Assembly: GCA_041737125.1 (NCBI GenBank)
Contig: JBGSSJ010000003.1
Coordinates: 15,718-79,717 of the forward strand
Direction of reading: 5' to 3'
Source: Minisyncoccia bacterium
Lineage (GTDB): Bacteria; Patescibacteriota; Minisyncoccia; Phycocordibacterales; UBA9973
Length of the DNA: 64,000 nucleotides
In this document: positions 45,356 to 64,000 of the stretch, piece after piece
Position numbering within the stretch: the first letter of the stretch is position 1
Layout: the number at the start of each line of letters is the position of its first letter
Translations under genes and position numbers: made by a program
Notes under the pieces: generated by a model
The model's input: only the letters and a program-made list of their open reading frames with translations
Told to the model about the DNA's origin: nothing
The model's database searches: none

Positions 45356-45360
45356 TTCAT

Positions 45361-45400
45361 AAAATAAAATCCCTCGAGTGTACTCGAGGGATTTTATTTT
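45361..45400. terminator. Perfect bidirectional intrinsic terminator aaaataaaatccctcgagtgtactcgagggattttatttt
   Basis: Read directly: 13 bp stem (including a palindromic CTCGAG) flanked by an A-run and a T-run; sits between convergent genes. Confidence 0.75.
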
Positions 45401-47081
45401 ATGAGACTTCTTGCTGATAGCAGGATTCACAATATATAATATCCGGTTTGTCTTTGCTGTAAGTTGTTTGAAATTTTTCGATACAATTATCTGTATGATT
45501 ATTGTGATTACTCTTGTCACACATGCATGACCTCTCATGTAGAGTACGAGGGTTTCTCCTTCGTATTCTGTCTTGATGCCTGCATTCGAAATCTTTATGA
45601 GGTAGTGGCAAGTTCATCTTCTTATAGAAGGCAAGCTCAGCTTCCACAATTTTATAATTCTTATTACATTCTTCGCACACCAGAATTTCTTGTAGGATAT
45701 TATCACTAACATTTTCTATTGTGTTTGGTGTATTACCTTTTGCTATTGTTTCTTTACTATATGTTCCAGTAACCTGCTCTTGCCATTTGTAACCTCGCTT
45801 CAGTGCTTCCTCTTTTGATAGTGGGAAGAAGTCACAAGCGAGTGTCTCATTATATCCGAATGGTGCAATGTGTGAAGGGAAGAATTGGTCAGCATCTTCT
45901 TCTTTCTTTATCTCTTCCAAAACTTTCTTTTTTAATTCTAGGTATTCTTCTTTTTCATATTCTTTATTGAGAATCATATGATTACCTTTTCTTATCGCGA
46001 TACAACCTATAGCATCAGATAAGTGGTAGGAACTTTCGCAATACATAATGTCATTACAGTAGAAGACGAAAGCAGAATTGCGGAGTTTATTTCCCTCGAG
46101 TGCGCCCATAATATTGTACCCATAACTTGGTCTGTAGTAATAATTATTGCAATCCATGCTGTCTATAGGGCTCTCTGAATCAGTCATATAAGAACAATTC
46201 TTTGCATCATAAGTATCAAAAAGCATAACTCCGTCATGACAGTTGTGCAAATAGTTCCCTGTTACGTTGTGGCATTTTGTCTGTGAAGAATATTTCTTCA
46301 CAGTTTCGTTCTTTAACTTCTCAAATTCTTTTTTCGCCTGTTCTATACTCTCATAACTTGCGAGTATTTCTTTCTTTTTATTTTCAAATTCTTCTTTACT
46401 ATATTTAACATTGAGAATTGCATTTGATAAGTGTCTTCCGTTTGAGCATAGAATGCAATTCTGTGAATCACGTATGTTGTAGCAGAAGAGTAAATCACTA
46501 GACGATTGGCATTGCTCGGAATACATACACTTGAAGCATTGCCTACAATCTATGCATTCATAACAAAGTTCTGATTCATGTAAGAACGCGCAGTCCACAC
46601 ATTGCTTGTCCCTCTGAAGGAGTCTGCCATACATACAGTCTTCATTATAGTCAGCAGCAAATATTAGATAGCAGTCTTTATTCTCCGCAGATCCATTCGT
46701 GTAATCACTACGGACATTATTGAAAGCCATGAGCCCCAGCCTAGGCACTTCCATTTGTAATTCTTTGTATTGCTTAAAGAAAGATTTGTTGAAATCATAT
46801 TCTCTGCCATAATCTTTCGGATTCCAATCATCGCTCCACCAGCAATCATGACAGTAAACTTTGTAAGGTGATGTCGGTGCATATACAGTAATGATATCTT
46901 TTTCGCAAAGGTCACAGGCCCTTTTGTAGAAAGTTCTTTCGTTTCGGAAAACCAATCTCCTTGCCATTCTACAATCTGGACAATATATAGGAGGAAGCAC
47001 ACTCATCTGCTCGTAGAAGACCATATCTTCGTCTTTAATAACGAACTCCTTTTCACATGTTTTACAGGTCTTGTTTAACAT
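45399..47081 (-). CDS. Cys-rich predicted multi-zinc-binding protein, paralog A (family not recognised)
   Basis: 560 aa. N-terminal CxxC...CxxC zinc-ribbon pairs (CKTCEKEF...CPDCR; CDLCEKD...CHDCWW). Central Cys-ladder (CVDCAFLHESELCYECIDCRQCFKCMYSEQCQ). C-terminal CEECNKNY...CESCYQQEVS. Collinear with 58290..59987. Confidence 0.65.
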   Translation of the reverse strand: MLNKTCKTCEKEFVIKDEDMVFYEQMSVLPPIYCPDCRMARRLVFRNERTFYKRACDLCEKDIITVYAPTSPYKVYCHDCWWSDDWNPKDYGREYDFNKSFFKQYKELQMEVPRLGLMAFNNVRSDYTNGSAENKDCYLIFAADYNEDCMYGRLLQRDKQCVDCAFLHESELCYECIDCRQCFKCMYSEQCQSSSDLLFCYNIRDSQNCILCSNGRHLSNAILNVKYSKEEFENKKKEILASYESIEQAKKEFEKLKNETVKKYSSQTKCHNVTGNYLHNCHDGVMLFDTYDAKNCSYMTDSESPIDSMDCNNYYYRPSYGYNIMGALEGNKLRNSAFVFYCNDIMYCESSYHLSDAIGCIAIRKGNHMILNKEYEKEEYLELKKKVLEEIKKEEDADQFFPSHIAPFGYNETLACDFFPLSKEEALKRGYKWQEQVTGTYSKETIAKGNTPNTIENVSDNILQEILVCEECNKNYKIVEAELAFYKKMNLPLPHKDFECRHQDRIRRRNPRTLHERSCMCDKSNHNNHTDNCIEKFQTTYSKDKPDIIYCESCYQQEVS

Positions 47082-47120
47082 ATTATGTTTGATGATTATA
47101 TCAATAATATTATTCTGATG

Positions 47121-48692
47121 CTATGAATTCGTTCTTGGTCTGTACTGCAACGCTTCTAATACATGTGAAGAGGTTATGTCTTTACTCCCTTCAAGGTCGG
47201 CGATGGTGCGGGCGAGCTTGATGGTGCGATGGTATGCCCGAGCGGAGAGCGAAAGTCGCTCGGCACTTTGATTTAAGAGATTTTTTATTTCTGGTGTCAG
47301 TGGTGCGTATATGGCCAAATCTTTCACATTCATTTCACTATTGGTATTTATTTTCCTCGAAGCACCTTTAAATCTCCTGCTCTGTATATCACGAGCCCTC
47401 TCTACTCGCTCTTTGATTGTGTGAGTCTTCTCTCCACTTTGCTCAGTGCTTGATAGCTTGTCATAGTCCACTGCTCCAACTCCAACCCATATATCAATAC
47501 GATCCATAATAGGGCCGGACAACTTCCTAGAATATTTATCCAGATCACTTGGTTTGCAAATGCAGGCTTTCTGCTTGTTGCCTTTGTTCCCACAAGGGCA
47601 AGGGTTCATTGCTGCTACAAGAATAAAATTCGATGGGAATATAGCAGAGCCCCGAGCACGTGATATCGATACTACATTGTCTTCAAGTGGTTGGCGGAGT
47701 GACTCGAGAACTTTCTTCTCGAACTCTGGGAATTCGTCGAGGAAGAGCACTCCTCTATGCGCTAGTGTTACTTCCCCTGGTTTGGGATTTGCTCCGCCTC
47801 CTATCATCGATACATAGCTTGCAGTATGGTGCGGTGCGCGGAATGGCGCATTGGTGATGAGTTCACCATCGAGTAATCCTACGACAGAGTGTATGCCAGT
47901 TATTTCTAATATTTCATCATTGCCCAAGTCCGGCAGTATATGCGAGAAGACCCGAGCAAGCATCGTCTTCCCTGTGCCTGGAGGTCCGGACATGGCTATA
48001 TTGTGCCCACCTGCAGCTGCTATCTCGAGCCCTCTCTTGGCCCCTTCTTGTCCGCGAATATCCGAGAAGTCGATAGGGTTCTCTTTGCGAGTATTTTTTA
48101 TCTCAGTTCTTGGTGTTGGTGTTATCTTCGGCCTCTCTTTCTCTATAGGGTTACCTTTCTTATCTAATCTTACTTTATAAACATGATCTATCACTTCGCG
48201 AAGTGTGCGTGCTCCGTAAACTACAATCCCATCTATAAGCGAAGCTTCCACAGCATTGTCTATCGGTAAAAATATCTCTTTGTAGCCGAGCTTCTTGGCT
48301 TCCTGAGTTAGTGGCAGTGCACCTTTTATAGGTTGGAGCTCACCGTTGAGCGAGAGCTCACCTAGGAATACTCTACCTGCTGGATCGAAATCTATCTCGC
48401 CCGCCGAGAGTAAGTATGCAAGTGCAATAGCCAAATCAAAATACGGACCCTCTTTTTTAAGGTCCGCAGGCGAAAGGGAGATAACTATTTTCTGGTTTTG
48501 ATTCTTTGGAGAGTTGAAGCCGGAGTTCTTCAGGGCAGAAGACATTCTGTCCTTAGATTCATCGACAGCTTTGTCTGGTAATCCGACTAGGGTAAATGCA
48601 TGTAAGGTGTTCTTTGTAATGTCTACTTCGACAGTTACAATTTTGCCTTTTAGTAAGTGTGTTTGCGCAGAATATATTCTAGCAAATGACAT
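47121..48692 (-). CDS. comM: Mg-chelatase-like AAA+ ATPase YifB/ComM
   Basis: 523 aa. N-terminal Lon-protease-like domain. Walker A GPPGTGKTML. Walker B VLFLDEFPEF. C-terminal Mg_chelatase region. Confidence 0.85.
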   Translation of the reverse strand: MSFARIYSAQTHLLKGKIVTVEVDITKNTLHAFTLVGLPDKAVDESKDRMSSALKNSGFNSPKNQNQKIVISLSPADLKKEGPYFDLAIALAYLLSAGEIDFDPAGRVFLGELSLNGELQPIKGALPLTQEAKKLGYKEIFLPIDNAVEASLIDGIVVYGARTLREVIDHVYKVRLDKKGNPIEKERPKITPTPRTEIKNTRKENPIDFSDIRGQEGAKRGLEIAAAGGHNIAMSGPPGTGKTMLARVFSHILPDLGNDEILEITGIHSVVGLLDGELITNAPFRAPHHTASYVSMIGGGANPKPGEVTLAHRGVLFLDEFPEFEKKVLESLRQPLEDNVVSISRARGSAIFPSNFILVAAMNPCPCGNKGNKQKACICKPSDLDKYSRKLSGPIMDRIDIWVGVGAVDYDKLSSTEQSGEKTHTIKERVERARDIQSRRFKGASRKINTNSEMNVKDLAIYAPLTPEIKNLLNQSAERLSLSARAYHRTIKLARTIADLEGSKDITSSHVLEALQYRPRTNS

Positions 48693-48700
48693 AGTATTGT

Positions 48701-49057
48701 TTACTCCTTATTAATACATTCCATACAAGTTCTCGCACTTGCATTCGCCTCTAGGCGTTCTTCTTCGATTGGTTTATTACAGAATTCACACATGCCGTAA
48801 GTTCCATCTGCAATCTTACCCAATGCTTTATCTATATCATCGAGTCTCTTGTTGAGCACATCTGTAGTGCTTGATCTCTCTTGATAATCCTCGGCGCGGT
48901 CAGCCATATCGTTCTCGTCTGATTCAGGAGAGCTTTGTTCCTCTGGAGTTGCTTCCCAGTCGCCTGTCTCTTTATCTTGTTTGCCCATTCCATTAAGTTC
49001 GTTTTCTACTAACTTTTTCTCCTCTTCTAATTTAGCTTTATAGATATCTGTTTTCAT
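48701..49057 (-). CDS. DksA/TraR-family C4-type zinc-finger protein
   Basis: 118 aa. Acidic coiled-coil N-terminus. C-terminal CEFCNKPIEEERLEANASARTCMEC. Confidence 0.7.
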   Translation of the reverse strand: MKTDIYKAKLEEEKKLVENELNGMGKQDKETGDWEATPEEQSSPESDENDMADRAEDYQERSSTTDVLNKRLDDIDKALGKIADGTYGMCEFCNKPIEEERLEANASARTCMECINKE

Positions 49058-49102
49058 TTTATTATCATAACATTATTACAATATCAATGGCAATTTATAC
49101 TA

Positions 49103-50038
49103 TTATATAGGCTTCGTCTCTTTTGCTCGCAATCTCGCTGTCACTTCTTTGATGGCTTGTTTGCTATCTGTTATGAGCAAGGTGTCCTTACTTGTAAATA
49201 TATAGAATAGTATGTCTTTACCATCCTTGTCGTAGAGTATGCGAGCGTCCTTATTATCAAGGATGATATCTTTCCAGGGTTTATCGAATAGTACACTCCT
49301 TTCTCCTGCGACATCTGTATCAAATAATACAAACATGTCGTTTAATAGCAGATCTTCCCAGGCAAGCATCGAAGCATAAGCTTGGTTATAATCTTTGATT
49401 TTGAATATTAAGAATGGGTGCGTCTCTGCGACTACTTGCTCCTCTCCTTCAGCGTTTGTTGTTGTGGTTGATTTGGCTACGTAGGATCCTATCATGTAGT
49501 CTGTATCGAAAGTACGAACAAGTGCTTGTGGAGCATCAAGATCAAATAATGTGAGGAACTTTTCTATAGATATTGGCGTCTCTACTTCGCCCACTTTTTC
49601 TTGCAAAAGAATTGATTTAATTTGACCCTTCGCGAGAGGCTTCTTTGTTTCTTCTTTTATCAAAGTCCCTAGTTCTATGTCTGTGTTTATGTTGCTAGTA
49701 TCAAGAGCAACTTCTTCGTCATAAGATATGAGTGCTTCGGTTCTTATTTTTACTTCTGGTGCTATACTTGCACTTTTATTTTTCTGATAGAGGAAGTATC
49801 CTCCGACAAGAGAACCCGCGATGAAAATAATTCCTCCTAGTACCCAGAAGAATTTATTCACACCAGATCCACTTGCTTCCTGGTATATTTCTTCTCTTTC
49901 GCGCTTCTCTTTTTCGGCAAGAGCAATCTTGATAACTGACATCTCATTCTCACGAACAGCATCAGCCATATCTGATGTGTAAGTGTGAATAGTTTTCAAA
50001 TTATTCTTTGTATTGTTTTGTATTTCTTTCTCGTCCAT
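49103..50038 (-). CDS. Hypothetical membrane-anchored protein
   Basis: 311 aa. One TM (FFWVLGGIIFIAGSLVGGYFLY) after a charged N-terminus. No motif recognised. Confidence 0.5.
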   Translation of the reverse strand: MDEKEIQNNTKNNLKTIHTYTSDMADAVRENEMSVIKIALAEKEKREREEIYQEASGSGVNKFFWVLGGIIFIAGSLVGGYFLYQKNKSASIAPEVKIRTEALISYDEEVALDTSNINTDIELGTLIKEETKKPLAKGQIKSILLQEKVGEVETPISIEKFLTLFDLDAPQALVRTFDTDYMIGSYVAKSTTTTNAEGEEQVVAETHPFLIFKIKDYNQAYASMLAWEDLLLNDMFVLFDTDVAGERSVLFDKPWKDIILDNKDARILYDKDGKDILFYIFTSKDTLLITDSKQAIKEVTARLRAKETKPI

Positions 50039-50050
50039 TTTTATTTTTTA

Positions 50051-52174
50051 CTATGCTTTTGGTTTAAAGAAATTCTCATCCGCTTCTTTGATTGATAGGT
50101 TCAGACGTCCTTTCTCATCCACCTTTATTATCTTCACTGGCACCTTATCCCCTTCCTTAAGAATATCAGAAACTTTCTCTACACGGAACGGTGTAATTTC
50201 AGAAATGTGTACAAGTCCTTCTGTTCCATTTGATAGTTTCACAAACGCACCGAAATCCATGAGCTTCACAACTTCCGCATCACTAGTATCACCTACTTTG
50301 TATTCATGTGTCATGTCATCGATTATCTTCTTCGCTTTCTCTGCGCCCCCATTCTTACCTGTGATGAATACTGTTCCATCTTCTTCGATTGTGATCTCTG
50401 TGCCTGTCTCTTCACGAATTGCATTTATGTTCTTGCCTCCAGGTCCGATGATCATTCCGATCTTCTCTTTATCTATTTTAGTCACTACTATCTGTGGAGC
50501 ATTTGGTGAGATATTTGCGCGTGGAGTTGGGATCTCTTTCGTGATGGCTTCTAGTATTTGAAGTCGAGCAGTTTTCGCACGAGTGAGTGCTTCCTTTAGT
50601 ATGACGACTGGGATGCCATCTACTTTCACATCGAGTTGTATCGCTGTGATGCCATCTTTCGTTCCTGCAACTTTGAAGTCCATATCACCGTAGTGATCTT
50701 CTGGTCCTTGAATGTCAGTGAGTAGGACATATTTATTTTTATTTTTCTCATCTATCATTACTCCTACAGATATACCTGCGACTGGAGTCTTAATCGGCAC
50801 GCCTCCGTCCATAAGTGCGACTGTGGATGCACAGATAGATGCTTGTGAAGTGGAACCATTCGATGCAACAGATTCAGATACTACTCGGATAGTGTAAGGG
50901 AAATTTATTTTCTCAGGTATGACTGGAGTGAGAGCTTTCTCTACGAGGAAGCCGTGGCCCATCTCTCTGCGGTTGAGTCCTCCGACGCGGCCCGTCTCAC
51001 CTCCTGAGTATGGAGGGAAGTTGTAGTGATGCATGAAACGCTTCTTGAATGAGTTCTCCACTCCGTCTATCGCATGCATGTCCTCTGGTCCACCGAGAGT
51101 GAGCACAGAGAGCACGTGTGTTTCGCCACGATAGAAAATACCAGAACCGTGTAACACTGGTGAAATACCCCCAGCTTTTGCATAAAGACCTCGGACTTCA
51201 TCGACAGCTCTGCCATCTGCGCGTTTGTTTTCAAGGAGGGATGCTGTGTGAAACATAGAGTCTAAGTAGTGATGTATGTAATCTTGTGCCACATACTTGT
51301 CTTCATCAGTGTAGTCAGGGTAAGTTTCTTTGATAAGAGTCTTCCATAAAGCTTCTGCTTCACTTGTGACTTCTTTACTCTTGGCACCGAATAGTCCTCC
51401 ATCGATAATTGGCTTCACTTTGTTATTAAAAAGTTCTATGACGTCAGTCGGAGTCTCTTTCTTTGGGAAAGAAAGTTTAGCTTTACCAAATTCTGCTCGT
51501 AGCTTGTTCTGGAATTCTTCCCACTTTGTTATCTCTGCTACTGCCATATCGAAGCACTTACTCATCTCTTCTTCACTAAGCTCATATGCCATAGACTCGA
51601 TCATGTTGATAGTCTGCTCTTTACCGCAAACTAGTAGATCAAGTGCGTAGACTGCTTCATCGGAATTCGGAATGTAATTATTTATTTTGATCTCAGTCTC
51701 ACCATGGGCCTTACTTATGTGTACTGCTCCTACCGGACCGTTCCAAGGAATGTCGGACATTGATAGAGCGATAGATGAAGCATTGATTCCCAAAGTTTTC
51801 GGATCAGCACCACCGACTGCGATAACTGTGATGATTACTTGAACTGCGTTCTTGATATGGTGATCAAAGAGTGGGCGAATAGTTCGGTCTGTCATGCGGG
51901 CTGCAAGTATTGCTTGCTCAGAAGGTCTGCCTTCTCTCTTACTAAATTGTCCACCAAGAATTTTCCCTGCGGCATAATACTTCTCCAAGTACTCGACAGT
52001 CAGATTAAAGAATCCAGGATTATCTTCCCCACTTTTTGATATTACCGCTGTCGCCATAACAACTGTGCCGTCGCATTTGAGCATGACGGAACCATTCGCT
52101 TGATTTGCTAAGTCGCTAAAAACGGCCGTAATTTTCTTACCACCAATCTCTACTTCATATTCTTTACTTTGCAT
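50051..52174 (-). CDS. pnp: Polynucleotide phosphorylase
   Basis: 707 aa. Two RNase PH-like domains, then KH (IGMIIGPGGKNINAIREETG), then S1 (VGDTSDAEVVKLMDFGAFVKL). Full-length collinear with PNPase. Confidence 0.95.
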   Translation of the reverse strand: MQSKEYEVEIGGKKITAVFSDLANQANGSVMLKCDGTVVMATAVISKSGEDNPGFFNLTVEYLEKYYAAGKILGGQFSKREGRPSEQAILAARMTDRTIRPLFDHHIKNAVQVIITVIAVGGADPKTLGINASSIALSMSDIPWNGPVGAVHISKAHGETEIKINNYIPNSDEAVYALDLLVCGKEQTINMIESMAYELSEEEMSKCFDMAVAEITKWEEFQNKLRAEFGKAKLSFPKKETPTDVIELFNNKVKPIIDGGLFGAKSKEVTSEAEALWKTLIKETYPDYTDEDKYVAQDYIHHYLDSMFHTASLLENKRADGRAVDEVRGLYAKAGGISPVLHGSGIFYRGETHVLSVLTLGGPEDMHAIDGVENSFKKRFMHHYNFPPYSGGETGRVGGLNRREMGHGFLVEKALTPVIPEKINFPYTIRVVSESVASNGSTSQASICASTVALMDGGVPIKTPVAGISVGVMIDEKNKNKYVLLTDIQGPEDHYGDMDFKVAGTKDGITAIQLDVKVDGIPVVILKEALTRAKTARLQILEAITKEIPTPRANISPNAPQIVVTKIDKEKIGMIIGPGGKNINAIREETGTEITIEEDGTVFITGKNGGAEKAKKIIDDMTHEYKVGDTSDAEVVKLMDFGAFVKLSNGTEGLVHISEITPFRVEKVSDILKEGDKVPVKIIKVDEKGRLNLSIKEADENFFKPKA

Positions 52175-52373
52175 ATTGTGTGTAGCTAATCCAGAGACCC
52201 TAGTTTTGAAATTTTGGCCCTTAGGCTATTTCAACGCTATCCGTCTTTGGATTAACGAATTTACTTATTAATACTAGAAGCATAGCAGAAAATGTGAGTT
52301 TTATGAAGAGCCAAATTATCCTTTGACTTAAAATTTTATCTAGTATAGAGTGTAGAAAAAAAGGAGTGTTTAT

Positions 52374-53087
52374 ATGAGAAACATAGAATTCTCTGGGTAC
52401 GAAAATGTGTCCAGATTACAACTTGTAAATTTTTCCCCAGGATATTTGGGAATGCTTACTGATTTAAGGTTAAATATCCGTGAGAACCAGACAATGAATT
52501 TGTGTTTGGTGAGAATCACAGATGTTGGTGTGTCCGTAAGTCCACCAATAAATTTTAGCAATCTAAGTATGGAGGGTAATTTCATCAAAGGGACTTACTT
52601 CGATGATCATTACCAGACTGACGAAGGGCAAAAGATTCCCCAGACAAAGACCATCCGCTTAGACAATCCATTCGGTGAAGTTCCGATCATTCCGGGGTGG
52701 CAAGCTTCCAAGCTTTTTATTTTCGGTGAAGGGTTGGATGAATACCAATCATTCATTGAAGAAGCCAGGAATGGATTATTGACTGAGCTTGGGAAGCCGA
52801 TTCAGCTGACCTACAAAAACGATGACGGAAGTTTTTCTGTTGTTGGAGGTTTGCTGAATATAGTGAATAGAGGGAATATTGATGTTCAGGACTACTATGA
52901 AATACTGGTAGTAGAGAACAAAACTGTTTCTGCAAATTCGCTTGACCGCAGGAAGAACCACCGGTTTATTTCTGAAAATGGTTTTCTGGTAATGGTTGGC
53001 CCTGCATTTGCAAAACCTAATTCTATGGACACCGGAGAAGTTTTCGGTATCGAGAAGTTCTGGAATTTCAAACCCCACAAAGGTTAA
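52374..53087 (+). CDS. Hypothetical protein
   Basis: 237 aa. Strong RBS AAAGGAG 10 nt upstream of the ATG, and a -35-like TTGACT upstream. No recognisable domain. Confidence 0.5.
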   Translation: MRNIEFSGYENVSRLQLVNFSPGYLGMLTDLRLNIRENQTMNLCLVRITDVGVSVSPPINFSNLSMEGNFIKGTYFDDHYQTDEGQKIPQTKTIRLDNPFGEVPIIPGWQASKLFIFGEGLDEYQSFIEEARNGLLTELGKPIQLTYKNDDGSFSVVGGLLNIVNRGNIDVQDYYEILVVENKTVSANSLDRRKNHRFISENGFLVMVGPAFAKPNSMDTGEVFGIEKFWNFKPHKG

Positions 53088-53119
53088 AGAAAATTTTAAA
53101 GTTATTAAAAAATAACAAC

Positions 53120-53155
53120 AATGGCGTTGCTTGAATGCAACGCCATTTTTATTTT
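53120..53155. terminator. Intrinsic terminator aatggcgttgc-ttgaa-tgcaacgccatt followed by a T-run, with an A-run on the other side (bidirectional)
   Basis: Read directly. Confidence 0.65.
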
Positions 53156-53161
53156 ATATTT

Positions 53162-53689
53162 TTAATATATCAAATACTTTTTTGGGTTTACGGAGAGGTC
53201 GAGGAAGTCATCGGCTGTCTCTTTGAGCTTCATTGATGAGCTTTTGCCGAAAGATACGACTTCTATCTGGACACCATAAGTACTCTGCAAGTATTCTACC
53301 AAGGGCACGAAGTCCCCATCCCCTGCCACGAGCACTACTGCGTCGAGCTTCGGTGCCATCTTTACCGCGTCTATGGTGATACCGACATCCCAGTCGCCCT
53401 TCTTCGCCCCACCAGCGAATACTTGTAAATCTTTTGTCTTTGTTTCTATGCCAAGCTTAGTTAGTGCATCGAAGAAGTTCTTCTCATCACCTCCTTCACT
53501 AGTGATAACATATGCGACTGCACGCACTAGCTTCCTACCTGCAACTGCGTCGCGAAGTACTGCCCCGAAGTTCACCTTCCTTTTATATAGATTCTTCGCA
53601 CTATGATATAGATTGGATGTATCTATGAACACCCCTACTCTCTGTTCTTTATGTTTGATTATGCTCATATATGTATTGTACCAAAACAA
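53162..53689 (-). CDS. NYN-domain (LabA-like) protein
   Basis: 175 aa. VGVFIDTSNLYHSAKNL and VVLVAGDGDFVPLVEYL match the NYN/PIN-like acidic motifs. Confidence 0.7.
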   Translation of the reverse strand: MFWYNTYMSIIKHKEQRVGVFIDTSNLYHSAKNLYKRKVNFGAVLRDAVAGRKLVRAVAYVITSEGGDEKNFFDALTKLGIETKTKDLQVFAGGAKKGDWDVGITIDAVKMAPKLDAVVLVAGDGDFVPLVEYLQSTYGVQIEVVSFGKSSSMKLKETADDFLDLSVNPKKYLIY

Positions 53690-53723
53690 AACGTCCTCCG
53701 ACAGGGGTCGGAGGGCATTTCGA

Positions 53724-53984
53724 TTAAGCTTTTATTAATTTAGTCTGAGTCGCATGTCTTACCTTGTCTGTCTTCTCCAAGTATTTAAGGTGACCTCTAC
53801 GATCAGCAACCATTTTTATCAATCCTCTGCGTGAATGGTTATCTTTCTTGTGTTCCTTTAGGTGGCTTGCAAGTTCATCGATTTTCTTACTCAATATAGC
53901 AATCTGTACTTCAGGACTTCCAGTATCTTTCGCGTGTAACTGGCTCTTTTTTATAATATTTTGTTTTTTCTTTGTTGTTAACAT
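53724..53984 (-). CDS. rpsO: 30S ribosomal protein S15
   Basis: 86 aa. [50 protein letters not shown] matches the S15 family signature. Confidence 0.9.
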
Positions 53985-54122
53985 CGTGGCTCAATATTAG
54001 CACATATTATAAAAAATTGCAAGACCCACTGAATATACTGATTATTCACCCTCTTAGTAGTCATTATTGACGAAAAGCATTTAAAGTGGTAGTTTGGAAT
54101 AAACTTATTAAATTAAAAAACT

Positions 54123-54587
54123 ATGACAAAGAAGCTTCTTAGTATACTCCCCATTAATTGCGAGTATCGACACGGTGATGAATTAGTAGTAGGACTATCT
54201 TCTTTCTATTTAAATTTATTAAATAAAGGAGAAGAATTCGAGGACCAGCAGGTTTATTTTGAGGATGGTTTTGGTAAAGTTTGTAAACTGTTCTTCAAAC
54301 ATGAAACTAACTTAGCATGCCGGTTGCAAATGCTTGGTGAGAAACCTAGTGACCATGATTGTGATTTACGCATCAAGCCAGCGATTGTGAACAACTTCAC
54401 TCTAATGGCTCAAAAACCCTTTCATTATGATGGAGACACATCAACAGGTTATATAAGCAACATAATGGTTACCACTGGGATTTCCATAAAGGAGATGCCC
54501 CTTCAATCTTCAGAATACCCGGATGCTTTTTTGATTACACAATTTGAGGAAAGGTGGAACAAAAAAGCCCATGCCTTGTACCCCTAA
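54123..54587 (+). CDS. Hypothetical protein
   Basis: 154 aa ORF with a clean promoter-distal position. No recognisable domain. Confidence 0.45.
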   Translation: MTKKLLSILPINCEYRHGDELVVGLSSFYLNLLNKGEEFEDQQVYFEDGFGKVCKLFFKHETNLACRLQMLGEKPSDHDCDLRIKPAIVNNFTLMAQKPFHYDGDTSTGYISNIMVTTGISIKEMPLQSSEYPDAFLITQFEERWNKKAHALYP

Positions 54588-54799
54588 TAAGTACAAAACC
54601 TACTTACCAGAACGTTCGACAAAACCCGAACGTTCTGGTATTTTTTATTATGTTATAATTATTGTGCGACCCTCCTTTTTACTATAGGGGGCACACTTGT
54701 CCCGTACTAAATTTTTGATTATTTATTTTAAAGATTTAGAAAGATAAGGAAAATTTATTTAGAGAAAGATAATTATTAATATTAAAATTTTAGTATGGG

Positions 54800-55723
54800 A
54801 TGGCTACACAATTAGAACAACTTAAAAGAGAATTCCTTGAGCATATCGAGATAGAGAAAGGCAGAAGCCTGAAAACGGTAGAGAATTACGATCACTACAT
54901 TACTCGCTACTTCGACTTCTCGAAAGTGAAGAATCCAGAGGATATAGACAGCACTTCTGTGCGTGAGTTCAGGCTTTGGCTTAATCGTCAGTCGATGGGT
55001 AACAATAGAGCCACAGGGAAAACAGTCTCGAGGAAGACTCAGAACTACTACATGATAGCTCTGCGGGTATTCCTGAAATATCTAACAAGGAAGAAGATTA
55101 AATCCATGTCCGCCGATGAGATAGACTTGGCGAAAGTCCCCGAGCGCCACCTCGACCTCATATCTACGAACGAGCTTGGCCGATTACTGAAGTCGTCCGA
55201 AGGTGGTGATATAAAGTCACTCCGTGATAAAGCGATACTCGAGCTACTATTCTCGACTGGGCTTCGTGTATCCGAGCTGTGTTCACTTACAAATGATATA
55301 GATTTCGAGACTGGGGAATTCTCTATCCGTGGTAAAGGTGGGAAGATAAGAGTCGTATTCATATCCGATGAAGCGCGCACGACACTGAAGAAGTACCTCG
55401 CTTTGCGGAAAGATATGTCCGATTCCCTATTCGTTCAGATAGGTAGCGAGAAGAAAGATGGCATGGATATAAAGCCACTAACTAGGCGCTCAGTAGAACG
55501 CATTGTGAAACAGTGCGCGGTTAAAGCCGGTATCTCGAAGAAGGTTACACCGCACGTCATCCGCCACTGCTTCGCCACTGATTTACTTTCAAATGGTGCA
55601 GACATACGCTCTGTCCAGACTATGCTCGGCCATGCCAACATAGCCACAACGCAGATATACACACACGTAACTGATGCACAGCTTCGCGAAGTCCATAAAA
55701 AGTTCCATGGGAAACGGGAATAG
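54800..55723 (+). CDS. xerC: Tyrosine recombinase, XerC/XerD type
   Basis: 307 aa. N-terminal core-binding domain. Catalytic R...HxxR...Y: RVSELCSL, HVIRHCFAT, GHANIATTQIYTHV. Confidence 0.85.
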   Translation: MATQLEQLKREFLEHIEIEKGRSLKTVENYDHYITRYFDFSKVKNPEDIDSTSVREFRLWLNRQSMGNNRATGKTVSRKTQNYYMIALRVFLKYLTRKKIKSMSADEIDLAKVPERHLDLISTNELGRLLKSSEGGDIKSLRDKAILELLFSTGLRVSELCSLTNDIDFETGEFSIRGKGGKIRVVFISDEARTTLKKYLALRKDMSDSLFVQIGSEKKDGMDIKPLTRRSVERIVKQCAVKAGISKKVTPHVIRHCFATDLLSNGADIRSVQTMLGHANIATTQIYTHVTDAQLREVHKKFHGKRE

Positions 55724-55886
55724 ACCACCCCACAAAAATTAAAATAATCTCATTCCAGAGTCCGGAAATTTCTTACTAGAAATTTCCTCATTGTTCGCGC
55801 CGTCGCACTTACCAGCCTCTTCCATGAGGTTATTTTAATTTCTGTGTTCACTCGATAATACTTTTATTTCGTGATATATTTTCTAT

Positions 55887-56666
55887 ATGAAAATTATTTC
55901 TTGGAATACGAATGGTTTGCGAGCGACAGTGAAGCAAGGGAACTTCGATCCCCTCTTCTCTAAATACAAGCCCGACATAGTTTGCCTACAAGAGACGAAA
56001 GCAGAAGCTGAACAGCTTCCAGAAGATGTCCGTAATAAGAAAGGCTATTACTCGTACTTCTCGCATTCACGTAAGAGAAAGGGCTATAGCGGTGTAGCTA
56101 TATACTCGAAGATAAAACCCGATAAAGTGACAGAGCTTGGTATCCCGCACTTCGATGATGAGGGTCGCACTTTGGTTGCTTACTATAATATAGACGGCGA
56201 AGAAGTCGTCCTCATTACATGCTACTTCCCGAATGGTGGTTCTGGTCCTGATAGGCTCGAATATAAACTAGAATTCTATGATGCATTCCTCAAGTTCATA
56301 AATAATTTGAGGAAGAAAGGAAGGAAAGTCATCTTCTGTGGGGATGTGAATACTGCGCATACGGCAGTCGATCTTGCCCGCCCGAAGGCCAATGAAGAGA
56401 ACACAGGCTTCCTCCCTATCGAGCGTGCTTGGATAGATAAAGTCGTAAAGCATGATTACGTAGATACATTCCGCTACCTTAATCCCAACACGAAAGACAT
56501 GTATACATACTGGGATCAGAAAACTGCCAGTAGGGATAGGAATGTGGGCTGGCGCATCGACTACTTCTTCGTATCGAAAGAATTAGAGAAGAAGGTGAAG
56601 AGGTCTACAATGCTCACTGACTATATGGGCTCTGACCACTGCCCTATCTTGCTTGAACTTAAATAA
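55887..56666 (+). CDS. xth: Exodeoxyribonuclease III (AP endonuclease family 1)
   Basis: 259 aa. MKIISWNTNGLRA, CLQETK, GDVNTAH, and a C-terminal SDHCP motif. Confidence 0.9.
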   Translation: MKIISWNTNGLRATVKQGNFDPLFSKYKPDIVCLQETKAEAEQLPEDVRNKKGYYSYFSHSRKRKGYSGVAIYSKIKPDKVTELGIPHFDDEGRTLVAYYNIDGEEVVLITCYFPNGGSGPDRLEYKLEFYDAFLKFINNLRKKGRKVIFCGDVNTAHTAVDLARPKANEENTGFLPIERAWIDKVVKHDYVDTFRYLNPNTKDMYTYWDQKTASRDRNVGWRIDYFFVSKELEKKVKRSTMLTDYMGSDHCPILLELK

Positions 56667-56705
56667 CTTGCATGTTTCACTTTTTGTGTTATAATAGTTT
56701 CAAAT

Positions 56706-56894
56706 ATGAGTTTCAGAAAATTTTTATCAAAATATTCCGGAGGGATAATTTTGATAGTGATGTCTTTTATCGTTTTTTACGGTGGTGGCCCAATATTCGG
56801 GCTACTAACTACAAATGTAGTGAGTATCATAGGCTTCCTAGGAGGGTTCTGTGTTATTTTTTCTACTGAGTTAAAGAACAAGACTTCAGAATAG
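56706..56894 (+). CDS. Small putative membrane protein
   Basis: 62 aa with two hydrophobic segments; weak. Confidence 0.3.
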   Translation: MSFRKFLSKYSGGIILIVMSFIVFYGGGPIFGLLTTNVVSIIGFLGGFCVIFSTELKNKTSE

Positions 56895-57010
56895 GATCCA
56901 GTTCCACGCTGTAAAGTGGTCGTCGCGTCACTCTTGTGTATGCGGCTTTTTTTATTTTTACACTATTCATGTATAATAGGAAAACATTATAAATTAATAA
57001 AATAAAAAAT

Positions 57011-57616
57011 ATGAAAACAATTATAACAATCCTTATTATTATCGCTGTTGGTGCTGGTATATGGTATGCCGTACAGACGAAGCCTGATGCAAATGTGCCT
57101 CAAGCAATAGTAAGTGATGTGAATACAAATACAACAGAAGAAGTGAAAGTAGAGAATACAACAACAGAGGCTGACTTTATTACAGGCAAGACGGTAGACA
57201 ATACAAATGTAAAAATTGGGTTTAAAGGTTTCGGTCCAGGTAAAGAGCACATAGGTTCATTTGCTAAGATTGATTCTAAGCTCGCAGTAGATGGAGCAAG
57301 TATCAAAGGTACAGTAGTCGCAGATCTTAATTCTATCAGTACAGACACTGAGAAAGTTACAGCTCATTTGAAAACAGCAGACTTCTTCGACACTGCGAAG
57401 TACCCAAATGCTACATTTAATCTAACTTCAATTATAGATGGTAAAGCTATGGGTAAGCTCACTGTCCACGGTGTTACGAAAGATATATCATTCCCTGTCG
57501 TAGCAAGTGCTACAGAAGTGAAGGCGACATTCAACATAGATATGAAAGAATTTGGTATAAACCAGAAGTTCGCGAACGAAGTCATCGAGCTTACAGTCAC
57601 AGTGCCCCTTAAATAG
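57011..57616 (+). CDS. YceI-family periplasmic / polyisoprenoid-binding protein
   Basis: 201 aa. Signal anchor. HLKTADFFDTAKYPNATF and LTVHGVTKDISFP match the YceI signature. Confidence 0.75.
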   Translation: MKTIITILIIIAVGAGIWYAVQTKPDANVPQAIVSDVNTNTTEEVKVENTTTEADFITGKTVDNTNVKIGFKGFGPGKEHIGSFAKIDSKLAVDGASIKGTVVADLNSISTDTEKVTAHLKTADFFDTAKYPNATFNLTSIIDGKAMGKLTVHGVTKDISFPVVASATEVKATFNIDMKEFGINQKFANEVIELTVTVPLK

Positions 57617-57621
57617 TATTT

Positions 57622-57661
57622 AAAATAAAACACCCCGACACAAGTCGGGGTGTTTTATTTT
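57622..57661. terminator. Perfect intrinsic terminator aaaataaaacaccccgacacaagtcggggtgttttatttt
   Basis: Read directly: 9 bp GC-rich stem plus T-run. Confidence 0.75.
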
Positions 57662-57709
57662 GTATTTATATGTGTGATAATAAATGCATGAACAAAATAA
57701 TACTAAATA

Positions 57710-58285
57710 ATGAGGATTATAAAGTTACGACTAGTAAACCTACCCTACTTGGTTATCTATGGCGAGAAGTCCGGAGGATCACATTTTACTATTACGCTTA
57801 TGGTGGATCTATATAAGTCAGGGGACAAGATACTTTTCTTCACTGCTTTCCCTATGGCGAAAGATAATTTCTTGGAACAGATTGGAGGTGTGAATGGAGA
57901 TGTTGCTTTTGTTAACTCGGTGGAAGATTTGGAAAACCACAAAGAAAGTAGAGCGATAATACTTGATAGTGGAAATGAAAGTTTATTTACTGATGCAGTA
58001 AGATTACTCCCAGATGTAAATGAAAGAATAATATTAGTGAAAAATATAGAAGCATTCAGTGCTCGTGTATTTGAGGCATGTTTACCTTTGGATAATATTG
58101 TTCTATCTGGTTATATAGATGCTTGTGTATCGAAAGACGAAATTATGGAGAAGAAATACAATAGTATGGTTGTGTTTACTAAACCAGAGATTACGCTTCC
58201 ATTAGAAGTTCCCGAACTTCCTAAATGGACTGGATATTTATCAAGTGAAAATAAAAGTGGAATGATTAAGGTTCAAATAAATTAA
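57710..58285 (+). CDS. Hypothetical protein with a degenerate P-loop-like segment, co-transcribed with Cys-rich paralog B
   Basis: 191 aa. VIYGEKSGGSHFTITLMVDLY resembles a RecA/KaiC-like strand-loop-helix but lacks the canonical GKS/T. 4 nt gap to 58290. Confidence 0.45.
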   Translation: MRIIKLRLVNLPYLVIYGEKSGGSHFTITLMVDLYKSGDKILFFTAFPMAKDNFLEQIGGVNGDVAFVNSVEDLENHKESRAIILDSGNESLFTDAVRLLPDVNERIILVKNIEAFSARVFEACLPLDNIVLSGYIDACVSKDEIMEKKYNSMVVFTKPEITLPLEVPELPKWTGYLSSENKSGMIKVQIN

Positions 58286-58289
58286 ATAT

Positions 58290-59987
58290 ATGGAAACAAA
58301 GCTCTGCCAAAATTGCAAAAAGGATTTCATTATAGACGAGCGGGATGCTCTTTATTATAAGAAGATAAATGTCCCTCACCCTACTTGGTGCCCCCTGTGT
58401 CGATTTGAACGTAGAATGTCTACGCATAATGTATGGAGTGTGTATTGGCGTAATTGCGATAAGTGTGAGAAGAAAGTGCTTTCAATGTACAACAAAGATA
58501 ACTCTATTACCGTGTACTGTCCTTCGTGTTGGTGGGCAGATGATTGGGATGGCACAGAGTACGGTATGGATTATGATACAAGTAAGAATTTCTTTGATCA
58601 ACTCTATGAACTTTCACGCAAGACTCCGTGGGTGGCACAGGAAACTGTCGCTCCAACTATGATTAATTCAGAGTATTGTAACGGTGCATCATACTTGCGT
58701 AATTGCTATCTGACGTTTTGGGCAGATTATTCTGAGAACATTACACATTCATCTATGATGTTGGAATTTAAAGATTCATCAGATTGTCTGAGGACTCAAT
58801 ACTCTGAACTGTGTTACGAGTCTATAGGTATAAATAAATGTTATCAAACATTCTTCTCTGAAGAGTGTGATGCTTGTACTGACGTATGGTTCTCTCGGAA
58901 CTGTTATAACTGCACAAACTGTATAGGCTGTGCGAACTTGCGCGGTGAGTCATACTGTATCTTTAACCAGAAATATTCTAAAGAAGACTATGCTATTAAA
59001 ATAAAAGAACTAGGTCTCGATTCTTGGGATAAATTACAAGATCTTCAAAAAACTTCTCGTTCTTTCTGGCTTACTCTACCTTATAGAGAGTACAGTGGTA
59101 ACTCTTTGAACGTAAATGTGACCGGGGAGTATACCTATGAGTCAAAGAATTCTCTGGATATGTATATATGTAATAACGCTGAAGAGTGTCGTTACTGTCA
59201 GTTTATAACTGTACCTTCTTCTAAAGAGTGTTACGATTACTCGGGTTGGGGAGCGAATGTTGAGCTTATGTACGAATCTCATTCGAGTGGTGAGAACGCA
59301 AGTAATATTAAATTCTCATACTGTGCTTATACTAACTCGATGAATGTAGAATACTCTATGTGGACCATTGCAGGGAAAGATAACTTTGGTTGTGCGAATT
59401 TGAAACGCAAAAAGTATTGCATTCTGAATAAAGAATATACAAAAGAAGAATATGAAAAGCTCAAAGGACAGATTATAGAAGATATGAAGAAGAATCCATA
59501 CATAGACGAGCAAGGTCGCGTGTGGAGCTACGGGGAAACTTTCCCTCTGAAAATGAGTCTCTTCAGCTACAATGAGACAAGTGGCGCAAAATTCATTTCA
59601 AAAACGAAAGAGCAAGCACTTAAAGAAGGATATACTTGGTATGAAGGAGAAACTCCTAGTCATGCCATCACGATGGAAAATACAGATATACCAGACACTC
59701 TGTCTATTACCAAAGATACGATTACGGATGAAGTCATAGAGTGTGGCGAGTGTAAGCGTGGATACAAGATTGGTCCTCTAGAATATACACTTCTAAATAA
59801 AATGAGTATACCTATCCCCCACTCTTGCCCTAAATGTAGAGAGAATGCTCGCTTCGCTCGCCTCAATCCCCCAAAGCTTTGGAATCGTGCCTGCACCAAA
59901 TGTAGCAAAGATATAAATACAGCTTTCGCTCCGGATCGCGCGGAAATTATTTATTGTGAAAAGTGCTACCAACAAGAATTCGTATAG
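58290..59987 (+). CDS. Cys-rich predicted multi-zinc-binding protein, paralog B
   Basis: 565 aa. Collinear with 45399..47081 at both termini (CQNCKKDF...CPLCR...CDKCEKK...CPSCWW; CGECKRGY...CPKCREN...CEKCYQQEFV) and in the central Cys ladder (NCYNCTNCIGCANLRGESYC). Confidence 0.65.
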   Translation: METKLCQNCKKDFIIDERDALYYKKINVPHPTWCPLCRFERRMSTHNVWSVYWRNCDKCEKKVLSMYNKDNSITVYCPSCWWADDWDGTEYGMDYDTSKNFFDQLYELSRKTPWVAQETVAPTMINSEYCNGASYLRNCYLTFWADYSENITHSSMMLEFKDSSDCLRTQYSELCYESIGINKCYQTFFSEECDACTDVWFSRNCYNCTNCIGCANLRGESYCIFNQKYSKEDYAIKIKELGLDSWDKLQDLQKTSRSFWLTLPYREYSGNSLNVNVTGEYTYESKNSLDMYICNNAEECRYCQFITVPSSKECYDYSGWGANVELMYESHSSGENASNIKFSYCAYTNSMNVEYSMWTIAGKDNFGCANLKRKKYCILNKEYTKEEYEKLKGQIIEDMKKNPYIDEQGRVWSYGETFPLKMSLFSYNETSGAKFISKTKEQALKEGYTWYEGETPSHAITMENTDIPDTLSITKDTITDEVIECGECKRGYKIGPLEYTLLNKMSIPIPHSCPKCRENARFARLNPPKLWNRACTKCSKDINTAFAPDRAEIIYCEKCYQQEFV

Positions 59988-62081: not shown

Positions 62082-62400
62082 CGTTATTTTGTGGTCAGGC
62101 ATAGTTTTCTGCAGAAAACTTGCACGACCCTGGCTCGGCCCGTCGGCCTCCGCCTTGCACAAAATGCTCAGCATTTTGTGCACCCAGAGGGAATTTCGAT
62201 CATTACAGGATCTGTACACCTTTCGTATCGTACTTGCTTCGCTCCGTGCGATATACTCAAGGTTTTTCGAATCCCTCAAAAAACATGTCGTTTATTTTGT
62301 GGTCAGGCATAGTTTTCTGCAGAAAACTTGCACGACCCTGGCTCGGCCCGTCGGCCTCCGCCTTGCACAAAATGCTCAGCATTTTGTGCACCCAGAGGGA
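62082..62400. repeat. 113 bp direct repeat x2 (62082-62194 and 62289-62400, ~98% identical, 94 bp spacer). Copy 2 contains the last ~14 nt of tRNA-Arg plus ~95 nt of its downstream GC-rich, hairpin-containing sequence
   Basis: Read directly: cgtt(t)attttgtggtcaggcatagttttctgcagaaaacttgcacgaccctggctcggcccgtcggcctccgccttgcacaaaatgctcagcattttgtgcacccagaggga. Confidence 0.85.
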
Positions 62401-62458
62401 TTCGAACCCCCAATGACAGTTCCGAAGACTGTAGTGATATCCATTTCACTATGGGTGC
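62387..62458 (-). tRNA. tRNA-Arg (anticodon TCG)
   Basis: Hand fold of the reverse complement: acceptor GCACCCA/TGGGTGC; D-stem GTGA/TCAC; anticodon stem ACAGT/ACTGT with loop CTTCGGA; T-arm GGGGG-TTCGAAT-CCCTC (one G-U pair); discriminator A. No encoded CCA. Confidence 0.75.
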
Positions 62459-62601: not shown

Positions 62602-62673
62602 GCGGGATTGGTTTAGTGGTAGAACACGTCCTTGCCAAGGATGAGACAGGAGTTCGATTCTCCTATCCCGCAC
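62602..62673 (+). tRNA. tRNA-Gly (anticodon GCC)
   Basis: Acceptor GCGGGAT/ATCCCGC (perfect); anticodon stem CGTCC/GGATG with loop TTGCCAA; T-arm AGGAG-TTCGATT-CTCCT (perfect). Confidence 0.85.
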
Positions 62674-63370: not shown

Positions 63371-64000
63371 TTATATGGCTTTAGTTTGTGCCCACGCTAG
63401 TTCAAATATAATCTTTCTATAAAAATGAGCAATATCCACATTCTCTATGACTGTGCATGTAAGCTTTCCTTCTGTGAAAGATTGAATAGCTAGACTATCA
63501 TTCCAACTGAAGATGCCAGCCTTCCATTCCGCATCCTCTGGCATGAGGCGGACCTGGATTTTATACTCGCTCGACTTGGTATTTACTTTATTAGCAAAAT
63601 CGCATGGCGGGAAAATAAGCCTTGTACGTATACCTTTTTGGGATCTACGCTCAAAATATCCTTCTAGGTATTCTGGATCAAGGAGTTCAGAAAATAATTT
63701 AACATAGGTAAATACTAAGACCTCGCCTTTGGCAGTCAGTGTTTCCTCCAGCATTTTTTTGAATCCATCTACCCCCTCATACAACTTTACTAAGGGGATA
63801 CCCCCGTCACTTGGCTTGATAGTGTTCAGTAAATCTACTGCATAGTTGATATTACCTTTGAGTAACGCTAGATCGTTCTGCCGTAGTTGGAGGAGGCTAT
63901 AGAGCACACTTGGATTTTCAGCCCCTATGTACCTTTTCTTATTTTTCCTAGTTTCATATAGTAATCCTTTCTTAAGAAGTTGCTCTACTTCAGAATATAC
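63371..64000 (-). CDS. Partial CDS: TrmB/MarR-like winged-helix transcriptional regulator; its N-terminus lies beyond the window end
   Basis: The tracked ORF starts at a GTG (63907), but the frame stays open upstream to position 64000 (...VYSEVEQLLKKGLLYETRKNKKRYIGAENPSVL..., wHTH-like). The C-terminal ~175 aa domain is unassigned. Confidence 0.5.
   Translation of the reverse strand, partial: VYSEVEQLLKKGLLYETRKNKKRYIGAENPSVLYSLLQLRQNDLALLKGNINYAVDLLNTIKPSDGGIPLVKLYEGVDGFKKMLEETLTAKGEVLVFTYVKLFSELLDPEYLEGYFERRSQKGIRTRLIFPPCDFANKVNTKSSEYKIQVRLMPEDAEWKAGIFSWNDSLAIQSFTEGKLTCTVIENVDIAHFYRKIIFELAWAQTKAI

Follow-up and report, generated by a model that had tools for sequence, protein, structure and literature searches.

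What do two large, cysteine-rich proteins do in a cell of the Patescibacteria (the Candidate Phyla Radiation, CPR), which account for a large part of bacterial diversity, possess genomes of ~1 Mb and are mostly uncultured? The question is raised by a stretch of 64,000 nucleotides from a Minisyncoccia bacterium (contig JBGSSJ010000003.1 of the assembly GCA_041737125.1, positions 15,718 to 79,717), referred to below as the window. It carries the genes of paralogue A (45399..47081, minus strand, 560 amino acids (aa), orthologue group 'L') and paralogue B (58290..59987, plus strand, 565 aa, orthologue group 'B'). A preliminary description had presented them as two diverged, collinear proteins of an unrecognised family, presumably binding several zinc ions and each encoded next to a nucleoside triphosphatase (NTPase)-like gene. 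The analysis described here, which consists of comparisons of sequences and predicted models, points to a very large family of Patescibacteria in which zinc modules probably cap a duplicated, solenoid-like core, and which we tentatively read as adaptors or scaffolds for soluble ATPases.

Architecture of the Two Paralogues

Both open reading frames (ORFs) were found as described, and BLASTP aligned the two proteins end to end with 34% identity and 53% positives (E = 1e-109). Similarity so far above chance indicates that A and B are true, anciently diverged paralogues. The sequence features singled out in the preliminary description were recovered as well. Four N-terminal CxxC pairs (the double zinc-ribbon) are present in both proteins, and the CWW[SA]DDW motif follows the second of these pairs as CHDCWWSDDW in A and CPSCWWADDW in B. 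The central region between residues ~130 and ~377, reported to hold roughly 20 Cys, has 20 of them in A and 19 in B, and the C-terminal C(E/K)(S/K)CYQQE module reads CESCYQQE in A and CEKCYQQE in B. In total, A contains 37 Cys and B contains 35. The isoelectric points are 5.6 and 5.3, respectively (family median 6.2), and no transmembrane segment or signal peptide was found in the family proteins, which appear to be soluble, acidic and cytoplasmic.

The domains of both proteins follow each other in a pseudo-symmetric order, namely a treble-clef/zinc-ribbon pair, core 1, a helical hairpin, core 2, an alpha/beta domain and a second treble-clef/zinc-ribbon pair. On the plus strand, B begins with the N-terminal double zinc-ribbon (58290..58544; C6/9/34/37 and C56/59-x17-C77/80), which is followed by core repeat 1 (58659..59012, residues 124-241), core repeat 2 (59109..59474, residues 274-395), the alpha/beta linker domain (59475..59720, residues 396-477) and the C-terminal double zinc-ribbon (59721..59984; C485/488/513/516 and C535/538-x17-C556/559). 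The corresponding parts of A on the minus strand are the N-terminal double zinc-ribbon (46827..47081, residues 1-85; C6/C9/C34/C37 and C56/C59/C77/C80, then CWWSDDW), core repeat 1 (46365..46718, residues ~122-239), which is Cys-rich and keeps a period-3 register, core repeat 2 (45921..46274, residues ~270-387), which is homologous to core 1 and Cys-poor, and the C-terminal zinc module (45402..45695, residues 463-560).

The symmetry results from duplications at two levels. The C-terminal module is a duplicate of the N-terminal one: in B the Cys spacing of the N-terminal module, 3-25-3-19-3-18-3, is repeated exactly at the C-terminus, and the two modules match each other by BLASTP (28% identity, E = 9e-14) and by hhalign (probability 99.8%, E = 5e-30). 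Core 1 (B residues ~124-241) and core 2 (~274-395) match by hhalign with a probability of 99.9% (E = 4e-36), and the central region is therefore regarded as an internal duplication. Both cores end with the signature FGC.NL..K.Y.I.NK.YSKEEY, which is followed by a helix. The family consensus of the alpha/beta domain is YGEFFP...SPF.YNET...FPLTKEEA...G..W, of which B retains YGETFP...YNET and KTKEQALKEGYTW.

The AlphaFold model built from an alignment of 142 sequences has a mean predicted local distance difference test score (pLDDT) of 88 and a predicted template modelling score of 0.90. The pLDDT exceeds 90 in the termini and in the alpha/beta domain and is 72-80 in the cores; an earlier run with a shallow alignment of 40 sequences, in which the core pLDDT was 30-65, was replaced by this one. 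Profile autocorrelation revealed a period-3 signal in both cores, with the strongest lags at 12 and 24, and no such signal in the control regions. The model has beta-bridges every 3, 6 or 12 residues (351-354/357/360, 363-366/369/372, 375-378/381). From these data we infer that the two cores are narrow solenoids of ~12 residues per coil, in which every third residue, Cys or another small one, would be buried. Foldseek found no match in the PDB for the predicted model, and the core is a candidate for a new repeat fold.

A tentative likeness is that to the antifreeze protein of Tenebrio molitor, a narrow, Cys-filled beta-helix with coils of 12 residues (TCTxSxxCxxAx). Its resemblance to the cores lies in the period-3 register of Cys and small residues, in the lags of 12 and 24 and in the beta-bridges of the model, as would be expected of 12-residue coils with four inward positions. 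However, the Tenebrio protein is secreted, disulfide-bonded and only 84 aa long, whereas the family is cytoplasmic, its Cys are variable and it has no Thr-x-Thr ice-binding face. The antifreeze protein was not among the Foldseek matches.

Zinc-Ribbon Modules at Both Termini

In the second ribbon of the terminal modules, the spacing CxxC-x17-CxxC is exact at C56/C59-x17-C77/C80 in both A and B, and again at C535/C538-x17-C556/C559 in B. The matches to the Pfam domain PF23477 (zf_Tbcl_2) fall exactly on the CxxC-x17-CxxC segments and reach 20.7 bits in B (E = 3e-4) and 14.8 bits in A (residues 49-81), below the cut-off of 27 bits; the match of B to TIGR04272 (17.4 bits) is likewise below its cut-off of 36 bits. 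Meanwhile, PF23477 is found above the curated threshold in many relatives, as well as in the long partner ATPase described below (49-54 bits). The CxxC-x17-CxxC domain of small proteins of Methanosarcina mazei binds zinc, as determined by inductively coupled plasma mass spectrometry (PMC12704099). The Cys spacing of these proteins (A00184 and A01980) is identical to that of the second ribbon of each terminal module, but they stand alone with ~40-60 aa, whereas in the family the domain forms one ribbon out of the four at the termini of a 560-aa protein. The first ribbon, CxxC-x24-CxxC with a basic CRxxRR helix, resembles PF13451 (zf_Tbcl, 'probable zinc-ribbon / treble clef'), which is annotated in several members, although A and B themselves do not match it at E≤1. 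Phage models named 'putative zinc-ribbon domain' superpose on the first ribbon at 0.5-0.7 Å over ~40 residues.

The counting and spacing of Cys that the preliminary description had proposed distinguished two classes of them in the family. Among 142 diverse members, each of the terminal positions C6, 9, 34, 37, 485, 535, 538, 556 and 559 is Cys in ≥96%. The positions C59/C77/C80 are all present in 76 proteins and all absent in 65 (pairwise r=0.99-1.0), and C488/C513/C516 vary together as well (r=0.74-0.94). Such behaviour marks the terminal Cys as all-or-none ligand sets, as expected for tetrahedral sites. Most members, A included but not B, have an insertion C-x-C-x4-H-x2-H-x3-C in the last zinc finger. 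In A it comprises residues 519-533 (window ~45483-45527, minus strand), and the C-terminal module of A is of this majority type, with Asp/His replacing one Cys of its first ribbon. The insertion suggests an additional, interleaved LIM-like zinc site, which would be the fifth in A. It also explains the weak likeness to LIM/CRP proteins, confined to the last finger (E=0.004-0.45), which was all that sequence and profile searches of the PDB returned. The proposal that the termini are zinc-ribbon modules therefore stands, and they probably hold structural zinc, four ions in B and about five in A.

The Central Cys Ladder

The second class, the central Cys, behaves differently. About 45 central columns lie on an unbroken register of every third residue (from B127 to B223 without insertions or deletions). 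Each of them is Cys in 15-92% of the members and otherwise Ser, Thr, Ala, Val, Ile, Leu or Met, and in the covariation analysis of the 142 members none of them clustered with another. Given the period-3 register, the reading of the cores as narrow solenoids, and the independent, graded variation of the Cys, the ladder appears to be a packing feature whose Cys are individually dispensable.

The preliminary description had suggested for these residues structural zinc, or a scaffold for iron-sulfur (Fe-S) or ribosomal-peptide chemistry, and the idea can be widened to a zinc-storage, metallothionein-like or redox scaffold. What speaks for such a role is the sheer number of Cys (26-49 per protein in the family, median 37), the CxxCxxCxxCxxC run of A, and the presence of genes for CutA1, a protein of divalent-ion tolerance, within arrays of family genes at eight loci. 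The quartet C205/208/211/214, complete in B, is also complete in 54% of the members; this weighs against a pure packing function and may mean an optional extra metal site in some paralogues, B included. The quartet is nevertheless graded, with one, two, three and four Cys in 3, 22, 40 and 77 proteins, respectively, and its pairwise r≤0.42 contrasts with the 0.74-1.0 of the true finger sites. The substitutes listed above also speak against a ligand set, core 2, although homologous to core 1, retains the signature of the fold while having few Cys, and the run of A has S/I/T at three of its five positions in B. No genes for Fe-S assembly or maturation, radical-SAM or YcaO enzymes, lanthipeptides or other ribosomally synthesized and post-translationally modified peptides (RiPPs) recur in the 80+ family neighbourhoods. 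Furthermore, a protein of 560 aa that is conserved throughout and has no leader/core organisation is unlike a RiPP precursor peptide. A conserved metal, Fe-S, redox or RiPP scaffold in the central region is therefore very improbable, and packing remains our explanation of the ladder.

A Large Family Restricted to Patescibacteria

A profile search of 1.84 billion cluster representatives, with clusters defined at 50% identity, returned 5,112 family clusters at E≤1e-3, of which at least 2,084 reach E≤1e-30. Almost all of the best 150 clusters are full-length (540-610 aa). A single peptide pattern found at least 576 loci in the species genomes of GTDB, and 80 of these were retrieved; we number the loci with L. 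The retrieved ones come from Nomura-, Staskawicz-, Giovannoni-, Jorgensen-, Lipton-, Sungi-, Gribaldo- and Abawacabacteria and from Minisyncoccia, all of them lineages of Patescibacteria. Among the matches listed for the two proteins, the orthologues of A (65-74% identity) belong to many Paceibacteria-type genomes and those of B have 57-81% identity; none of them has a name, and every source is labelled as Patescibacteria, Paceibacterota or Nomurabacteria. The family divides into at least 36 orthologue groups. Altogether, the family appears to be very large, heavily expanded and restricted to Patescibacteria. One contig with two full-length family genes in tandem (L037, CAYJLM010000079.1) is titled 'uncultured Gammaproteobacteria bacterium' and is probably a mislabelled or contaminated metagenome-assembled genome.

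The statement that the family could not be recognised was borne out by the profile and structure searches, from which no confident assignment to a known family emerged. Pfam, NCBIfam, PHROGs and PADLOC contain no curated model for the body of A or B; the matches in these libraries were the sub-threshold single terminal ribbons (PF23477, TIGR04272) and a weak one to phrog_15341. No description of the family was found in the literature, and by these comparisons it falls outside all described families and systems. The core has a single detectable relative beyond the family, phrog_15341, which is an uncharacterised phage family. Its profile of ~276 positions aligns with the double core (residues 137-351 of A) in 25 of 40 members (best E = 9e-7) and, unlike them, lacks the terminal zinc modules. 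Carriage of the family itself by phages or plasmids was considered and rejected: tblastn found no match of A in 50,697 phage genomes and none of B in a plasmid collection. The sole match in IMG/VR was one marginal fragment at a contig end.

Conservation was measured in matched genome pairs against neighbouring genes. A is 67-72% identical where comM is 78-85%, pnp 80% and dksA 50-53% identical; B is 59-80% identical where xth is 43-72%, cca 73-78% and xerC/D 84-89% identical. These values indicate ordinary purifying selection at housekeeping rates rather than an arms race. These ultra-small bacteria with minimal genomes keep up to seven or more family ORFs per locus, anciently diverged and each conserved in its own right, which by our estimate is ~1-2% of the coding capacity, and it is unlikely that they are dispensable. 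The family looks like an important piece of CPR cell biology, for which its domain architecture, its apparently structural Cys ladder and its linkage to ATPases, in some lineages within a dnaK-dnaJ operon, provide a handle.

Gene Arrays and Soluble TraD/VirD4-Like ATPases

Of 85 sequences scanned (L001 and L002 represent the same region), 53 contain two to seven co-directional and mostly abutting family ORFs, some of them gene fragments; L016 and L019 have seven consecutive ones each. The median identity is 41% within a locus and 58% to the best match in another genome, and for 93% of the array genes the nearest relative is found in another genome and not in their own locus. By this measure the arrays are ancient.

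The most recurrent non-family neighbour is a P-loop ATPase. Its 41 genes were found at 27 of 83 loci, 40 of them co-directional with the family genes and often separated from them by gaps of 4-90 bp. Within 1 kb of a family gene lie 37 of 40 ATPase genes, a density ~40x that of the farther flank. These ATPases pass the Pfam gathering cut-offs for TrwB_AAD_bind, TraG-D_C, T4SS-DNA_transf and DUF87/HerA and have the Walker A motif GKSG[VT]GK[ST]; meanwhile, they remain far below the NCBIfam equivalog cut-offs for TraD/VirD4/CedD (about 50 bits against 250-650). Two subtypes exist. The short one (~490 aa, GKSGVGK[ST]) has no finger, and the long one (~700-830 aa, GKSGTGKS) has a zf_Tbcl_2 finger above threshold (E = 4e-13 to 1e-14), followed by a Lys/Pro/Glu-rich tail of 200-340 aa. 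Neither has a membrane anchor, as the Walker A motif begins as early as residue ~35-64 and the maximum hydropathy has a median of 1.13. The array ATPases, as distinct from A and B themselves, share with the coupling proteins TraD, VirD4 and TrwB the FtsK/HerA-type P-loop and the TrwB/TraG signatures. They differ from them in lacking the N-terminal anchor and the context of a type IV secretion system (T4SS) or relaxase, the long subtype also in its zinc finger and its Lys/Pro/Glu tail; no genes of a T4SS channel (VirB4, VirB6) or of a relaxase recur among the family neighbours.

Type IV coupling proteins recruit substrates, and multi-paralogue arrays are common among effectors. Arrays bracketed by TraD/VirD4-like ATPases could accordingly be taken for cargo that these ATPases recognise and that the episymbiont delivers to its host. 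Such a role is improbable. The ATPases have no membrane anchor and the channel genes do not recur nearby, the family proteins carry no secretion signal, and both the housekeeping level of purifying selection and the closeness of 93% of the array genes to orthologues in other genomes are at odds with it. In addition, proteins folded tightly round several zinc ions would be poor substrates for translocation.

Some arrays are embedded among chaperone genes. At six or more loci a long ATPase, family genes and a short ATPase stand beside or within a one-strand chaperone operon, with dnaK upstream and dnaJ downstream in L028, L052, L059, L070 and L082 and dnaJ only in L069. L059, L070 and L082 share the exact order dnaK - ATPase-L - A - D - ATPase-s - dnaJ, and L069 has the unit of ATPase-L, family genes and ATPase-s with dnaJ only; in L028 and L052, dnaK and dnaJ flank different family groups. 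DnaJ itself uses a Cys-rich zinc domain, and the family proteins might on these grounds act together with DnaK/DnaJ as zinc-dependent holdases or co-chaperone-like proteins, or be obligate clients of Hsp70. We consider this quite unlikely, since the dnaK/dnaJ embedding concerns 13 of 84 loci, mostly titled Nomurabacteria, and may be lineage synteny, since A and B in the window are not near dnaK or dnaJ, and since no similarity to known chaperones was found.

Family genes (FAM) also have conserved places in the orders rluA-FAM-L19 and ATPase-s - cutA - cytidylyltransferase - FAM. Genes of group B abut ATPases in L010, L012, L014 and L020, and L074 contains an A-type gene next to a B-type one, with a short ATPase alongside. 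In the window the slots are dksA-comM-A-M23 and xerC/D-xth-[U]-B-cca, and no TraD-like ATPase was found there by hmmsearch with the filters off. The A and B of the window therefore look like dispersed derivatives of such arrays, placed in conserved housekeeping slots. The pairing with an NTPase proposed in the preliminary description is not the rule in the family and is not supported for the two genes that had been named; it was half right in that a different P-loop ATPase is strongly enriched near family genes in other genomes.

Two further kinds of genes were seen at the arrays. CutA1 genes (~100 aa) lie in or at the edge of arrays in L010, L016, L025, L026, L030, L038, L053 and L074, usually adjoining the short ATPase and often with a cytidylyltransferase-like gene next. 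TrmB-type genes (PF01978, ~250 aa) lie divergently upstream in L002, L003, L004, L041, L058, L076, L078, L086, L087 and L090; they were considered as specific partners and set aside, as a 2.8-fold enrichment on 13 genes is too weak. A TrmB-like ORF at ~63380-63997 (minus strand) in the window is cut by the window end.

Possible Function of the Family

Over 142 sequences, eight columns are invariant (C6, F13, C34, P113, N380, C485, P510 and R517). All of them are structural or symmetric and form no catalytic-looking constellation, which is the reason for reading the family as non-catalytic. Our favoured interpretation, to which we give somewhat less than an even chance, is that A, B and their relatives are paralogue-specific adaptors or scaffolds for soluble ATPases or for the nucleic-acid substrates of these ATPases. 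In each paralogue the solenoid faces would then offer a specific binding surface. The zinc-finger pairs would attach the protein to a partner or ligand that the family and the ATPases have in common; the most plausible candidates are nucleic acid and the ATPase hexamer itself. Several points weigh against this interpretation. No homologue of known function was found among the database matches, and the adaptor role is drawn from architecture and neighbourhood. Two thirds of the family loci, both window loci included, have no ATPase in the sampled flank, so the family must also function, or be encoded, away from it. Finally, the lack of a recognisable catalytic constellation is not proof that catalysis is lacking.

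The last point leads to the view that the family consists of enzymes, each paralogue catalysing a related reaction on a different substrate (modification of nucleic acid, protein or envelope precursors), with the zinc modules as clamps. Ancient paralogues that are individually conserved at housekeeping rates are typical of subfunctionalised enzymes, there are conserved polar positions (D84, D96, Q104, D165, N226, D316, N380, K381, S423, N428), and the neighbours rluA, cca, xth and pnp are housekeeping genes. Yet the eight invariant columns are all Cys, Pro, Phe, Asn or Arg, and Asp, Glu, His, Ser or Lys form no invariant constellation; neither the libraries nor the PDB nor Foldseek revealed a resemblance to an enzyme family or an enzyme fold; and a repetitive core of this solenoid-like kind is seen more often in binding proteins. 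We regard an enzymatic function as unlikely and prefer the adaptor or scaffold role.

A bolder form of that role, which we put forward as a speculation with rather little probability, is that the family and the two soluble ATPases flanking it constitute a hitherto unrecognised machine specific to Patescibacteria. The narrow, acidic double solenoids would be paralogue-specific gates, adaptors or mimics of nucleic acid for hexameric DNA/RNA translocases, docking through the treble-clef zinc finger common to the family and the ATPase. If this were true, the family would be tied to the uptake of DNA and the scavenging of nucleotides, on which reduced episymbionts of this kind rely.

Genes Adjacent to A and B in the Window

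Paralogue A is the last gene of a dksA-comM-A unit. The comM-type AAA+ gene (Mg-chelatase/MCM-like; 47121..48692, minus strand) encodes a full-length ComM (ChlI, E = 3e-37; Mg_chelatase, E = 2e-88; Mg_chelatase_C, E = 1e-29) and ends 39 nt upstream of A, and a strong hairpin terminator with a 20-bp stem (45357..45404, minus strand) straddles the stop codon of A and ends just downstream. L091 has an identical block pnp-X-dksA-comM-A-X-M23 (67% identity). The gene comM lies upstream of A-type genes in the window, in L003, where two genes interrupt the block, and in L091, whereas L090 and L074 lack the adjacency. The reported position of A directly downstream of comM is correct, but a conserved pairing of the two is not supported, and the adjacency is best described as block synteny rather than as a partnership or a family-wide pairing. 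The conserved place of A behind comM would fit the DNA-uptake reading mentioned above.

Paralogue B is the second gene of a two-gene unit with a small accessory gene (57688..58285, plus strand). The unit is considered separate because a strong hairpin terminator (57621..57662, plus strand) lies between yceI and the small gene. The preliminary description had called a 191-aa ORF here (57710..58285), coupled to B over 4 nt and bearing a P-loop-like motif. The ORF does end 4 nt before B, but it is a frameshift-shortened reading of a gene whose native product has ~198 aa. Starting from 57688, frame 0 still encodes the complete family-conserved N-terminus MNKIILNNEDYKVT, and the called ORF is in the +1 frame; compared with 23 aligned homologues, a 1-nt frameshift near 57730 joins the MNKIILNNEDYKVT segment to the called ORF. 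The frameshift is either a very recent mutation or an assembly error.

The small-gene family comprises 44 clusters of ~198-aa proteins with 45-83% identity and no annotation. Its conserved motifs are GEKSGGSHF, IILDSGNE and LVKNIEAFS; GGSH (in Y-G-E-K-S-G-G-S-H-F) is invariant in the 23 homologues, and the other two motifs are invariant in parts. The P-loop-like motif is conserved, but it lends no support to an NTPase: G-E-K-S-G-G-S-H does not conform to the Walker A pattern GxxxxGK[ST], as Ser-His replaces Lys-Ser/Thr. No match was found in Pfam, NCBIfam, PHROG or PADLOC, and the profile search of the PDB gave E≥0.49. A degenerate relative of the array ATPases was also considered and rejected (hhalign probability 0.1% against the TraD-like ATPases).

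In L086 the small gene immediately precedes a B-type gene (3-nt spacer, start-to-stop offset 4; the window spacer is 4 nt), in L087 it immediately follows one (4-nt spacer), and in L088 it stands alone, without B, in the same xth...cca slot. It is absent at the closest orthologue of B (L085, 80% identity), where xth abuts B, and at L002 and L004. A family that is this rare and that occurs before, after or without B does not bear out the idea of a conserved pairing of B with an upstream NTPase-like gene, and its distribution indicates a facultative, lineage-restricted accessory.

Other Features of the Window

Six large ORFs on the minus strand at 23787-43521 (795, 748, 1054, 514, 527 and 828 aa) have no match in Pfam, and the run could be another CPR-specific gene cluster; the 828-aa ORF (41035-43521) is Lys/Glu-rich and of low complexity. 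The segment 10001-12000 has a GC content of 0.27, compared with about 0.39 overall, around the ORF 10618-11715 (minus strand), and may be a recent insertion or an AT-rich gene. Near-perfect palindromic hairpins at 54605-54640 and 53120-53147, with terminator scores on both strands, lie between convergent or adjacent housekeeping genes. Just beyond the gene for the CCA-adding enzyme lies tRNA-Arg(TCG) (62386-62458, minus strand), from which tRNA-Gly(GCC) (62602-62673, plus strand) is divergent.

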